From assembly GCA_963621145.1 (NCBI GenBank), contig CAVFDI010000001.1, positions 79,066 to 143,065 on the forward strand: a stretch of 64,000 nt of DNA. Reading direction: 5' to 3'. The stretch is from Paludibacteraceae bacterium (GTDB lineage Bacteria > Bacteroidota > Bacteroidia > Bacteroidales > Paludibacteraceae). The notes under the pieces are model-generated. The model was given only the letters and a program-made list of their open reading frames with translations, did no database searches and was not told where the DNA came from. The translations under genes and the position numbers were made by a program. This document shows positions 37,219 to 43,959 of this stretch, piece by piece. Every line of letters begins with the position of its first letter. Position 1 is the stretch's first letter.

Positions 37219-38130
37219 TCAGTTTTCCCCGATTAAAAGGCGGTTTCGGTCAATTTCAATTTGATGTTCAAGTTCGGTAAGCGAGGCAAATTTTTGCTCA
37301 TCGCGCAGGCGGTGTTGTACTTTTATTGTCAGATTTTTCCCGTAAATGTCGCCATCGAAGTCGATGATGTGCGCCTCCACGGTCTGTTCGTTGCCCGAAA
37401 TGGTCGGTCGCGTGCCAATGTTGAGAAGTCCGCTGTGTTTTTTTTCAAAAATGTCTGTTTCGATGGCATAAACACCGCCGCGAGGTAACAATTTGCGTGG
37501 CGCAACAGCCAAATTTGCCGTTGGAAAACCAATGGTGCGCCCAATGGCCTGCCCGTGCTGCACTGTGCCCGACAGCGTGTAGTCGTAGCCCAACAGCGCG
37601 TTGGCTTGCTCTATTTTTCCTTCTGCCAAAAGTTGACGAATGATGCGCGAACCAACGATTTTTCCATCCATTTTCAATGGTTCGGCTTGCGCTATTTCTA
37701 CGCCAATTGTTTCTCCAATTTTCTGATAATCAGACAGTTCGTTCAATCCGTCGCTGCCAAAGTGGTGATCGTAGCCCAGCAGCAAATGACGCACGCCAAA
37801 GTGCCGATGCAGCAGCGAAAGAAAATCGCCAGCGGTGAGTTTCACCAGATTTTCGTCGAAATTGAGCATCAGGCAATAGTCGATGCACATTTTTTCGAGA
37901 AGCGTAATTTTTTCGGTGGGAGTGGTGAGCAGTTTTACCTGCGAATTTGGTGAAAGCAGTTGTGCGGGCGAATCGGCAAAAGTTATCACCAAAGTGGGCA
38001 GATTTTTCTCGCTAGCGCAGCGTTTCAGCCTCTCCAACAAAAACTGATGCCCACGGTGCACGCCATCGAAAAAGCCGATGGTAGCGCAAGTTTGGCACTG
38101 CAGCGAATTGATGTTGGAGAGAAGTTGCAT
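37219..38130 (-). CDS. ribF: bifunctional riboflavin kinase / FAD synthetase
   Basis: GFFDGVHRGHQFLL and the C-terminal kinase region GFPTANL...G.Y, 303 aa. Confidence 0.93.
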   Translation of the reverse strand: MQLLSNINSLQCQTCATIGFFDGVHRGHQFLLERLKRCASEKNLPTLVITFADSPAQLLSPNSQVKLLTTPTEKITLLEKMCIDYCLMLNFDENLVKLTAGDFLSLLHRHFGVRHLLLGYDHHFGSDGLNELSDYQKIGETIGVEIAQAEPLKMDGKIVGSRIIRQLLAEGKIEQANALLGYDYTLSGTVQHGQAIGRTIGFPTANLAVAPRKLLPRGGVYAIETDIFEKKHSGLLNIGTRPTISGNEQTVEAHIIDFDGDIYGKNLTIKVQHRLRDEQKFASLTELEHQIEIDRNRLLIGEN

Positions 38131-38262: not shown

Positions 38263-38294
38263 ATTCTTAATTCTTAATTCAAAATTCATAATTA
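38263..38294 (-). repeat. heptad tract (GAATTNN)n abutting a stop codon
   Basis: The sense strand reads TAA TTAT GAATTTT GAATTAA GAATTAA GAATTTT GG. Confidence 0.85.
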
Positions 38295-38885
38295 CAATTG
38301 CCCTGCTTCTACCAAAAAGATGATGCGTTCGATGACTTTGTCTTCGCTGCTGTCGCCGAATTTCTTTTTCAGATCGGCACCGAGTAGTTTGGCGAACATC
38401 TGGTAAAATCCAGCCGAAAAACTGCCTCGATAGGCGCGTATGAGTTCGTACGAGCTTGTCTGGCACTCGCGGTCGACTAGCCGAATGAGCAATTTGCCCT
38501 GATTTAGAGTCATCTGCGTGAACTCTTTGTAGTATTTTTTGTAGGTCGACTTTTCCCATTGCCGCATGTAGCGGTCGCGTGCTTTCTTGTCGGGCAGGCG
38601 CATCAGCGTGTCGTTCACCTCTTGCACCAAGCCGCTAATCATCTTCGAATAGGGCAAAACTTTTTTCACGTCGCGCACGGTTCGCCAATAGAAACGTTCT
38701 TCGCGCTTGTTTTTGAACTTCATCGGCGGAAAAACATAGACCGTCGGCAGCTGAAACACCGTGTCGCCGTTGATTATGTGCATCGGCACCACATTGGCAG
38801 CCAAGGGTTGCGTGGCAGGCACTGTGGCGCTCGCCGAAACGGCAAAGATGCACGAAGTGGCTAATATGAGCGAAAGGCGTTTCAT
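38292..38885 (-). CDS. DUF4294-like secreted protein
   Basis: Signal peptide MKRLSLILATSCIFAVSASA. GKLLIRLVDRECQTSSYELIRAYRGSFSAGFYQ...EDKVIERIIFLVEAGQL resembles DUF4294 from memory. Confidence 0.65.
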   Translation of the reverse strand: MKRLSLILATSCIFAVSASATVPATQPLAANVVPMHIINGDTVFQLPTVYVFPPMKFKNKREERFYWRTVRDVKKVLPYSKMISGLVQEVNDTLMRLPDKKARDRYMRQWEKSTYKKYYKEFTQMTLNQGKLLIRLVDRECQTSSYELIRAYRGSFSAGFYQMFAKLLGADLKKKFGDSSEDKVIERIIFLVEAGQL

Positions 38886-38915
38886 GAAAACAGATTGTAG
38901 GTAGATTCTAAAAAT

Positions 38916-38923
38916 TATCTTTG
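38916..38923 (+). promoter_or_regulatory. -7 box TATCTTTG just inside the left IR, reading rightward
   Basis: Consensus TAnnTTTG on the plus strand, which is the strand opposite to all neighbouring genes. Confidence 0.5.
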
Positions 38924-39012
38924 CAAGAATTTTTGAATTATAATCGAGCAGGTTTGATAAAATAGGCTGCGTCTCAGCAATTAAAGTGAACTTTATTGTA
39001 TTCGACTTGCAC

Positions 39013-39020
39013 TATTTTTG
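39013..39020 (+). promoter_or_regulatory. second plus-strand -7 box TATTTTTG inside the IR-bounded segment
   Basis: Consensus TAnnTTTG, 53 nt upstream of a 28-codon ORF (39073..39159). Confidence 0.45.
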
Positions 39021-39226
39021 AAAGAGCTTTTGGAGGCGCAAGGTGGCTTGTAACTGAAAAAACTCGAAAAAGATGCAGATTAGAAACGAAAATTCGCAAA
39101 GAGCAATCAAAACCGCAAAAGCATTTAGAAACTTACCAAAGAAAACAATAAAAGCGTAGAATTTTTAGAATCTACCTGTAGGTAGGTTGAACGCTACAAT
39201 TGTTTGAAAATCAAATTTCGTACCAA

Positions 39227-39724
39227 TCACAAATCGAGCAATCCTTCGGGCAGATTGGTGTGCAGAATTTTGCGTTTGTGGTCGATGTCGGTAATGAACT
39301 CTTCGCACACGGGCATCAGGCGGTCGCCAATGGCAAAAAGCGCATTTGCGGTGCTTTCGTCCACCGCGTCGATGGCACCAATGGTACCAAGCGTTTCGTC
39401 GATCACCGTGAAACCGACAAAATAGTCGAGCGCCAACTGGTCGCTATCTTCTGCCAACGATTTCGGAACAAAAAATTGTTTGTTTGTGAGTATTCTGGCG
39501 GCAGGCTCATTGTCGATGTCGAGAAATTTCACCAACCAAGTGGTGTCGTTCTTCGGTCGCACCGAATCGATAAAAAACGGCACGAAAATGCCATCAATAT
39601 CGAACACAAGGTAGCGGCACGCGTCCCAATCGAGGTCGATGTCGAGCGTGAGAGCCACTTCGCCGCGCACGCCGTGAGTTTTGCCGGTGGCCCCAGCCTG
39701 CATTATTTCGTCTGCTGAAATCAC
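39227..39724 (-). CDS. rimM: 16S rRNA processing protein RimM
   Basis: GKTHGVRGEVALT (RimM N-terminal barrel) and a PRC-barrel-like C-terminus. The GTG start at 39724 overlaps the lgt stop; an alternative ATG is at 39703. Confidence 0.85.
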   Translation of the reverse strand: MISADEIMQAGATGKTHGVRGEVALTLDIDLDWDACRYLVFDIDGIFVPFFIDSVRPKNDTTWLVKFLDIDNEPAARILTNKQFFVPKSLAEDSDQLALDYFVGFTVIDETLGTIGAIDAVDESTANALFAIGDRLMPVCEEFITDIDHKRKILHTNLPEGLLDL

Positions 39725-40623
39725 TTCTTATGTTTTACTGTTTTGTCGTCTGCTAGCACAAACTCCTGTTTGCCACGTTTCAGCGCGCGAACAATGAGCC
39801 AAACGCCCAAAATAACGAACGGTACGCTGAGCCATTGTCCCATGTTGAAAGTCATGTTGGCTTCGAACGCCGATTGGTCGTTTTTGAGCAACTCTATGAT
39901 TTGTCGCGCCAGAAAAATGCCCGTGAAACCAATGCCCGACAGCAGTCCGTAGTATTTTCCGCCCTCTTTGCGCCAATAGAGCCAAATGAGCAGCACTGCC
40001 ACTAAGAGATAAGCCGCTGCTTCGTACAGTTGCGTGGGGTGACAGGGCAGCCATTCGCTCTGCGGACAGCACACTTGTGGCGCAAGGCACTCTTCAAAAT
40101 TGTCGAATGTACCGCAAAATTGCTCTTGTCCGCGTTTGAAGATGAAACCCCACGGCATATCGGTTGGTGTGCCGTAGATTTCGGAGTTCATTAGGTTGCC
40201 AAGGCGAATCATGCAAGCCACGGGCGCGCAACCTATGAAAAGTCGGTCGCCGAGCCACCACATGGGCTGTTTTGTTAGGTAGCGCGACAGCAAATAGCAG
40301 CAAAGCACTATGGCGATGGCGCCGCCGTGACTAGCCAAGCCGCCGTGCCAAATCATGGGTATTTCGGCAAGATTCTCGCGATAATAGTCCCAATCGTAGA
40401 AAAAGACATGCCCCAAGCGCGCGCCAACAATCACGGCCACTACCATCCAGATGAATACTTTATCGAGCCACTCTTCGGGCGCTCCGTCGTGTTTGAAAGT
40501 CTTGCCAATGAGCGTGATGCCCAAGAAAAAGCCAAGTGCGTAAAGCACTCCATACCAGCGCACCTGAATGGGGCCGATGCTAAAAAATACGGGATCGATA
40601 TCCCAAATTATGTTTAACAACAT
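39721..40623 (-). CDS. lgt: prolipoprotein diacylglyceryl transferase
   Basis: VRWYGVLYALGF...GARLGHVFFY...HGGLASHGGAIA...LGNLMNSEIYG. Polytopic membrane protein. Confidence 0.93.
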   Translation of the reverse strand: MLLNIIWDIDPVFFSIGPIQVRWYGVLYALGFFLGITLIGKTFKHDGAPEEWLDKVFIWMVVAVIVGARLGHVFFYDWDYYRENLAEIPMIWHGGLASHGGAIAIVLCCYLLSRYLTKQPMWWLGDRLFIGCAPVACMIRLGNLMNSEIYGTPTDMPWGFIFKRGQEQFCGTFDNFEECLAPQVCCPQSEWLPCHPTQLYEAAAYLLVAVLLIWLYWRKEGGKYYGLLSGIGFTGIFLARQIIELLKNDQSAFEANMTFNMGQWLSVPFVILGVWLIVRALKRGKQEFVLADDKTVKHKK

Positions 40624-43239: not shown

Positions 43240-43917
43240 ATGCTCAAAAATCGACATAGATTGTTAGTTTGTGTGCTTCTCTGCTCGGCTCTCACGACCA
43301 TGGCGCAGCGCAATCCCGACCTTGTGAAATACTATCTGGAGTTCGGGTTGAATGGCGGCAGCGCGTTCTATTTGGGCGACCTGAACACAAAACCGTTTGC
43401 AAACCTTGGTGCTTCGTTTGGCGCGTTTGGTAAATACAAATTTACGGGTCATCACGAATTGGGCATGGAGGTGCGTGGCGGTTGGTCGGGCATAGAAAAG
43501 GTCGATGGGCAGCAGCGCAACACCGATTTTGTAGATGTGAGCGTGCTTTACACCTTCAACTTTTGGAACTATGGCGCGCGACGCTACGAAGAGAATGCTT
43601 CGATAGTTACGCCGTATGTTTTTCTGGGCGTTGGGGCGACCATCTACGATCTCGAGCATACGAAAGTGTGTCCTGCTTTTCCGTTTGGACTCGGCGTGAA
43701 AGTGAAACTCGGTCGTCGCTGGAACATTGGCGCTGCGTGGACAATGCACAAACTTTTCACCGATAATTTCGATGGCGTGGACGACCCCTATCGGCTGAAC
43801 AAAGGCATTTTTAGCAATCGCGATTGGCTATCGACATTTGGACTGTGCCTCTCGTGCGACTTTTTGCAAATATGTGCTCCGTGCCGCAAAATTGAGAAGA
43901 TAAAATCGAAAAGATAA
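43240..43917 (+). CDS. small outer-membrane beta-barrel protein (DUF6089-like)
   Basis: ORF trimmed to MLKNRHRLLVCVLLCSALTTMAQ. YYLEFGLNGGSAFYLGDLN and alternating strands. The position upstream of uppS-bamA matches my recollection of this family's conserved synteny. Confidence 0.55.
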   Translation: MLKNRHRLLVCVLLCSALTTMAQRNPDLVKYYLEFGLNGGSAFYLGDLNTKPFANLGASFGAFGKYKFTGHHELGMEVRGGWSGIEKVDGQQRNTDFVDVSVLYTFNFWNYGARRYEENASIVTPYVFLGVGATIYDLEHTKVCPAFPFGLGVKVKLGRRWNIGAAWTMHKLFTDNFDGVDDPYRLNKGIFSNRDWLSTFGLCLSCDFLQICAPCRKIEKIKSKR

Positions 43918-43929
43918 AATCGAAAAAAT

Positions 43930-43959
43930 ATAAAAGCGTAGAATTTTTAGAACCTACCT
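43930..43959 (+). repeat. solo copy (29/30 identical) of the right end of the 38899..39177 element
   Basis: ataaaagcgtagaatttttagaaCctacct here versus ataaaagcgtagaatttttagaaTctacct at 39148..39177. Confidence 0.85.

Follow-up and report, generated by a model that had tools for sequence, protein, structure and literature searches.

A 279-bp inverted-repeat segment between rimM and a DUF4294 gene in a Paludibacteraceae bacterium: very probably a transposase-less derivative of an IS5-family insertion sequence

In the genome of a Paludibacteraceae bacterium, a 279-bp segment bounded by perfect 18-bp inverted repeats occupies most of the gap between rimM and a gene encoding a DUF4294 protein, and the question that it raises is whether it is an invertible promoter switch or a piece of mobile DNA. 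Invertons of the Bacteroidales carry promoters between inverted repeats and are flipped by tyrosine or serine recombinases (PhaseFinder-type loci). An earlier reading of this DNA, made from the letters alone (the sequence-only reading), preferred an inverton, in which a recombinase would flip the 279 bp between the 18-bp arms and the promoters would alternate between antisense transcription of rimM-lgt and sense transcription of DUF4294-ribF. It offered a miniature element with terminal inverted repeats (TIRs) as the alternative, and named further copies of the 18-mer and target-site duplications as what should be looked for. The features of the locus, numbered within the window (the whole 64-kb stretch of DNA that was analysed), are the following.

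37219-38130, minus strand: ribF, downstream of the DUF4294 gene
38292..38885, minus strand: DUF4294 gene (Pfam PF14127, E = 3e-49), directly downstream of the insertion
38897..38898, no strand: left copy of the target-site duplication, GT; a single AC on the gene strand at the empty site of a sister lineage of approximately 92% DNA identity (L103)
38899..39177, no strand: very probable non-autonomous element (MITE), 279 bp, perfect 18-bp TIRs, approximately 35% G+C, no transposase
38899..38916, plus strand: left TIR, AGGTAGATTCTAAAAATT, outer end 13 nt from the DUF4294 start codon
38916..38923, plus strand: first -7 box, TATCTTTG, Bacteroidetes-type, adjoining the left TIR and pointing inward
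39013..39020, plus strand: second -7-like box, TATTTTTG, within an internal stretch of approximately 65 nt that is missing from a related copy (L065)
39160..39177, minus strand: right TIR, same 18-mer, outer end 49 nt from the rimM stop codon
39178..39179, no strand: right copy of the target-site duplication, GT, identified from the family pairs and the empty site
39227..39724, minus strand: rimM (Pfam RimM and PRC_RimM), directly upstream of the insertion
39721-40623, minus strand: lgt, preceding rimM
43917..43959, plus strand: probable single-end remnant, with one TIR (43942-43959, G variant) and approximately 23 nt of sub-terminal sequence

The anatomy of the locus is as the sequence-only reading had described it. 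The two arms are exact reverse complements (18/18 positions) separated by 243 nt; a motif scan of both strands of the element found TAnnTTTG on the plus strand alone, at 38916-38923 and 39013-39020; copies of a 9-nt direct repeat (TGTAGGTAG) occupy 38896-38904 and 39177-39185; and the genes flanking the 340-bp rimM-DUF4294 gap (ribF, DUF4294, rimM and lgt) are all on the minus strand. Superficially this fits an inverton: as in known invertons of the Bacteroidales, the order to which the host belongs, short and here perfect inverted repeats enclose a few hundred base pairs of AT-rich DNA in an intergenic position by an operon, with consensus TAnnTTTG boxes, two in this case and on one strand only. 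Over the whole window TAnnTTTG is only mildly enriched (56 occurrences against 41.5 expected).

The 18-mer occurs three times in the window when up to three mismatches are allowed, against 0.03 occurrences expected from shuffles. The left arm has one mismatch to the family consensus (AGGTAGGTTCTAAAAATT) and the right arm carries a G variant in the strain represented by assembly L001. The sole internal open reading frame (ORF) of the element (38996-39151, 51 aa) has no Pfam match, a tblastn search with IS5 transposases found no IS5-family transposase in the window, including the IS1168/IS1169 clade, and Rfam at gathering thresholds gave nothing in the element and two tRNAs in the window as a whole. 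A 172-aa ORF antisense to rimM (39200-39718, plus strand) also has no Pfam match and, rather than being a gene under the control of the element, is in all likelihood a shadow ORF of rimM.

The 9-nt direct repeat, which extends to 12 nt with one mismatch allowed, was considered as a long target duplication and rejected, because three things account for it: the duplicated GT, the six outermost nucleotides of the left arm, and a right flank with an incidental likeness to the arm. Outside the right duplication, positions 39180-39188 (AGGTAGGTT) match the opening 9 nt of the consensus repeat; the corresponding sequence of the empty-site relative (L103:3534-3551) differs from this arm-like flank at 5/14 positions, although the two sequences agree throughout the 80 nt alongside. 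The arm-like flank could be the footprint of an insertion or excision that took place earlier, or could stem from target mimicry or chance. A CRISPR repeat or Cas12a-like hairpin was also considered for the GTAGA...TCTAC motif, and was rejected since the stem has the wrong polarity, no array accompanies it and mobility accounts for the motif.

Dispersed copies, target duplications and an empty site

The 18-mer was scanned as the query AGGTAGRTTCTAAAAATT against one genome per GTDB species (596 Gb) and was found in at least 93 stretches. Among the matches listed, metagenome-assembled genome (MAG) RUG14395 has at least 15 exact copies on at least 12 contigs, RUG12229 has copies on at least seven contigs, and RUG849 and RGIG7691 on at least three each. 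Copies in Bacteroidota MAGs are frequently located at contig ends. Wherever copies among the matches listed could be aligned, the 18-mer invariably forms the outer boundary of a short, AT-rich stretch; copies within a genome have the same interior, which differs between genomes. A dispersed family present in many Bacteroidota MAGs has this 18-mer as its terminal inverted repeat, with the consensus end AGGTAGGTTCTA[A/T]AAATT. Singleton matches outside the Bacteroidota (Helicobacter, Trueperaceae, an archaeon and others) were treated as chance, since tens of chance matches are expected in 596 Gb and singletons in unrelated phyla carry little weight.

Target duplications were sought around inverted pairs of the 18-mer spanning 120-330 bp, with mismatches allowed (n = 25 among the matches listed). 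Identical dinucleotides flank 20 of the 25 pairs, whereas over 2000 trials with shuffled partners such pairs numbered 4.5 on average and at most 11. None of the 25 has a 3-bp flank match, and five have no recognisable duplication. The duplicated dinucleotides are TA (eight pairs), TT (four), AA, GA and TC (two each), and CT and GT (one each), the window element being the single GT/GT case. Target duplications in the IS5 family are 2-4 bp in some subgroups and 4 bp for IS5 itself; a duplication of 2 bp is short for the family, and this was counted against the explanation preferred below. Bacteroidales MAGs from the ruminant rectum contain 47-nt mini-elements (L007:7932-7978, L008:7515-7561, L014:2664-2710, L027:3698-3744, L083:4319-4365 and L089:6245-6291), which consist of barely more than two 11-nt ends (AGGTAGGTTCT...AGAACCTACCT) and may be the smallest mobilisable derivatives of the family or hairpin remnants.

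A site without the element was reached through homologues of RimM, not of the DUF4294 protein: a metagenome scan with the latter returned five relatives of 41-78% identity, none of which has rimM, lgt or ribF adjacent. The closest RimM relative (P0001, 91% identical) is encoded on the JGI contig Ga0565122_002255 (loci L103 and L110), which has the same gene order as the window (rnhB-fabF-acpP and lgt-rimM-DUF4294-ribF) at a DNA identity of 89-95%. Its rimM-DUF4294 spacer is 60 nt long and reads ...GCGTCAAAACCAAACT[AC]AATCGTTTTCATG (ending in ...CCAAACT before the AC); on the same strand the filled site of the window reads ...GCGTTCAACCTACCT[AC]{279 bp}[AC]AATCTGTTTTCATG (ending in ...CCTACCT before the AC). 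The flanks are conserved and the contig is without exactly the 279 bp and one copy of the dinucleotide. A difference between two lineages of exactly one element and one dinucleotide is the classical signature of transposition. The insertion would postdate the split of the window species from the Ga0565122_002255 lineage.

RimM relatives of approximately 70% identity (L104-L109) were uninformative as evidence for an empty site, as they have other genes downstream of rimM. These unrelated genes (L104:3656-4342; L106-L108:3672-5814; L109:3775-4932) encode an IS1595 transposase, an Exo_endo_phos protein or an AAA_14/DUF4143 ATPase; in this clade the rimM 3' junction is a recurrent point of rearrangement or insertion.

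The window contains one full copy and one remnant of the family. The sequence-only reading had noted a third partial copy of the repeat at 43930, and this copy is real and longer than the 18-mer: positions 43930-43959 are identical to 39148-39177 at 29/30 positions. Its TIR (43942-43959) presents the 18-mer on the minus strand and ends 16 nt upstream of the uppS start codon, and its sub-terminal sequence is that of the right end of the main element. Relative to L110 the remnant is a 43-nt insertion between an outer membrane protein (OMP) gene and uppS, is present in 5/5 same-species assemblies including the window, and has an inner boundary that is uncertain by up to 4 nt owing to an A-run. 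The inner edge nearly repeats the adjacent flank (ATCGAAAAAAT vs ATCGAAAAGAT). It would represent the decayed single end of a second insertion.

These observations also bear on a further alternative, namely that the segment never was mobile DNA and is a palindrome due to chance or of a purely structural kind (a terminator or a protein-binding site). Nothing but the inverted repeat itself speaks for it. The 18-mer recurs far above chance, the element has no terminator-like site, and a loop of 243 nt is incompatible with an intrinsic terminator; a chance palindrome is refuted by the dispersed family, the target duplication and the empty site, and the probability left to this alternative as a whole is close to nil.

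Autonomous relatives and the origin of the element

Autonomous insertion sequences (ISs) with the same ends were found. At L087:3876-5206 a 1331-bp IS is bounded by AGGTAGGTTCTAAAAATT and AGGTAACCTCCAAAAATT and encodes a 370-aa protein that matches the NCBIfam IS5 model NF033581 (203 bits, cutoff 140) and the Pfam domains DUF772 (PF05598) and DDE_Tnp_1 (PF01609). An IS5-family transposase adjoins the 18-mer at four loci, L087, L078, L018 and L014 (where it is decayed), of which the last three were chosen solely for containing the 18-mer. Of the named elements in an annotated plasmid collection, IS1168 (=IS1186) and IS1169 of Bacteroides fragilis come closest: the L087 transposase is 46% identical to that of IS1168 and 45% to that of IS1169, and the L078 transposase is 58% identical to that of IS1168, so that autonomous elements with the exact repeat of the window encode transposases at 45-58% identity to this clade.

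The ends of the named elements, AGGGGACTTCTATAAATT / TGGTGGGTTCTATCAATT for IS1168 and AGAGGAGTTCTATAAATT / TGGTGAGTTCTATCAATT for IS1169, differ from the family consensus at 4-5 of 18 positions (13-14 matches) and have a core in common with it, TTCTA(T/A)(A/C)AATT; intermediate end variants are present among the scanned loci. The arms of the window element are homologous to these ends (core TTCTAT(A/C)AATT / GGT(G/A)GGTTCTA), from which they differ at 4-6 of 18 positions. The IS1168 copy examined has TT/TT flanks, a 2-bp duplication like that of the window element; no duplication was found around the L087 IS or the IS1169 copy. IS1168 and IS1169 each carry a single consensus -7 box, TATATTTGCAG and TAAATTTGCAG respectively, which points inward from +58/+59 of the transposase-upstream end, and an inward TAnnTTTG near one end is likewise found in the window element. 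Unlike IS1168 and IS1169, which are approximately 1.32 kb long, the window element is 279 bp in length, has neither a transposase nor a resistance gene, and is unrelated to them in its interior outside the end regions. No parent IS with the element's own sub-terminal sequence was found, L087 having only the terminal repeat in common with it.

Shorter versions of the element occur in other genomes. A 215-bp version in a Paludibacteraceae MAG (L065) has both ends and most of the interior in common with the window element, and a 121-bp version (L035) retains the ends and the sub-terminal sequence. The first -7 box is conserved in both. The approximately 65 nt absent from L065 contain the second box, which is therefore not a conserved feature of the family.

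The 279-bp segment is very probably a transposase-less deletion derivative of an IS5-family IS of the clade of B. fragilis IS1168, IS1169 and IS1186. Counting against this are the five family pairs, the L087 IS and the IS1169 copy with no duplication, the presence of just one full copy and one remnant in the window, the search for a parent IS that found none with its sub-terminal sequence, and the arm-like right flank. Its membership of the dispersed family, its target duplication, the empty site and the autonomous relatives with the same ends are direct observations. A transposase encoded elsewhere would have recognised both 18-bp terminal inverted repeats, and the element would have been inserted into the short rimM-DUF4294 spacer with duplication of the target GT. 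The first -7 box probably survives from the promoter of the parental transposase gene, in which case the left arm would correspond to the transposase-upstream end and the right arm, facing the rimM stop codon, to the downstream end. The miniature element that the sequence-only reading had set second is backed by the tests of its ends, target duplication, small size, lack of a transposase, empty site and autonomous partners.

MITEs derived from IS5-family elements are known in Porphyromonas gingivalis, namely BrickBuilt, MITE239, MITE464/PgRS and MITE700 (PMC4596501). Like the window element, they are short, AT-rich, non-coding and intergenic elements of the Bacteroidales, with terminal repeats that match full-length IS5-family elements and with short or variable target duplications; they differ in their terminal repeats (GAGACC..., ACGTCAGTTCGA) and come from another IS5 subgroup (ISPg1/3/4/9), and the window element is without an internal minisatellite. 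A full-text search of the literature for the terminal repeat of the window element returned only unrelated primer matches and no description of a MITE that carries it. Both the type of element and its mechanism are standard and the IS1168/IS1169/IS1186 clade is well known; nothing suggests a new mechanism.

Orientation and variation among strains

In 7/7 same-species assemblies the element has the orientation of the window, with the proviso that assemblies report the majority state and that a rare flipped subpopulation could escape them. This set comprises all same-species assemblies reachable by exact protein look-ups: the window, L001 and L115 have the element complete, and L116-L118 and L002 have it in part. 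In every same-species assembly examined the insertion is fixed and has this one orientation. The contigs of L116-L118 run from rimM into the element and break off 130-225 nt inside it, and that of L002 enters from the DUF4294 side. Together with two Logan contigs (L003/L004), these four MAG contigs end inside the element at varying positions (approximately 38950-39148).

Such breaks within the segment could in principle be caused by a mixture of orientations, and to that extent they agree with an inverton. The contig ends fall at varied internal positions and not at the inner edges of the arms, however, so that a repeat or a strain-variable stretch fits them better than a flip; in same-species contigs the element behaves as an assembly-breaking repeat. 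A domain search found no recombinase in the ORFs scanned over 37.2-44.7 kb (acpP left out), nor among the called genes of L001 within approximately 4 kb. The arms, moreover, are termini that recur throughout a dispersed transposon family, which has 2-bp target duplications and IS5 transposase partners, and between sister lineages the segment is polymorphic for presence or absence, which sets it apart from Bacteroidales invertons, as does the fact that neither an alternative orientation nor a nearby recombinase was found. Of the two boxes that made a switch attractive, the second is not conserved and the first matches the presumed transposase-promoter position of IS1168 and IS1169. The preference of the sequence-only reading for an inverton is therefore unsupported, and it is very improbable that the segment is one.

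Differences between same-species assemblies are concentrated in the right third of the element (39090-39177; L001, L117 and L118). They include an A/G difference in the right arm of L001, where L001 matches the uppS remnant over approximately 36 nt. This variation suggests gene conversion between copies or the chimeric assembly of a repeat.

Possible effects on the neighbouring genes, and significance

Before the insertion, lgt, rimM, DUF4294 and ribF were probably co-transcribed, and DUF4294-ribF would now probably rely on read-through across the element. A regulatory effect of the element on DUF4294-ribF or on rimM may be considered possible, and complete outward promoters are documented for its relatives: IS1168, IS1169 and IS1186 activate nimA/B, nimD and cfiA in this way (PMC9330008, Table 2, a review table), which makes a regulatory effect of related ends conceivable. 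On the B. fragilis plasmid pBFO18_1 (L120:1621-1631) a distance of 7 nt separates the IS1169 end from the start codon of nimD downstream. This landing a few nucleotides upstream of a start codon has the same end-to-start geometry as the two insertions of the window (13 and 16 nt).

In its specific form, the proposal is of a co-opted MITE, in which the relic promoter (38916-38923) would direct antisense RNA onto the 3' part of rimM-lgt, or the arms would pair in the read-through mRNA, occlude the stretch 13 nt ahead of the DUF4294 start and so gate the translation of DUF4294-ribF. Several observations point in this direction. The -7 box at 38916 is of the consensus type and is conserved in relatives, the insertion is fixed in the species, the main element and the remnant lie 13 and 16 nt from start codons, and members of the clade are documented to supply nim and cfiA genes with outward promoters. 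Furthermore, the minus-strand RNA of the gap has a predicted fold of -67.7 kcal/mol (z = -2.4) in which the paired arms form the closing stem, 13 nt from the start codon of DUF4294. Against co-option, there is no consensus -7 box that points toward DUF4294, and the end of the element equivalent to the outward-promoter end of the ISs would face the rimM stop codon, the DUF4294 side being the probable transposase-upstream end. Neither is there a bias of the family towards gene starts: in a crude ORF-based test of 49 flanks, 10 ends lie at most 40 nt from an outward ORF start and 11 at most 40 nt from an inward ORF end. No intrinsic terminator-like site was found in the element, and a sigma-70 scan gave only weak promoter-like matches to a consensus that is not relevant for Bacteroidota. 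Co-option is considered unlikely on this balance, although less so than the inverton; if it were true, the insertion of a mobile element would set the expression of an essential FAD-synthetase operon. With no box toward DUF4294, the probable upstream end on that side and no bias towards starts, the insertion is read as probably neutral or mildly polar.

The main value of these results lies in annotation and in the avoidance of false positives, as MITEs that combine promoter boxes with perfect terminal repeats mimic invertons in screens based on sequence alone or on inverted repeats. The family is widespread among MAGs of rumen and gut Bacteroidales, the assemblies of which it breaks up. The IS1168/IS1169/IS1186 clade, known in the clinic for the activation of nim and cfiA, is extended here to non-autonomous derivatives in uncultured relatives, and since promoters can reside in the ends of such elements, expression data merit a look wherever an insertion lies a few nucleotides from a start codon.
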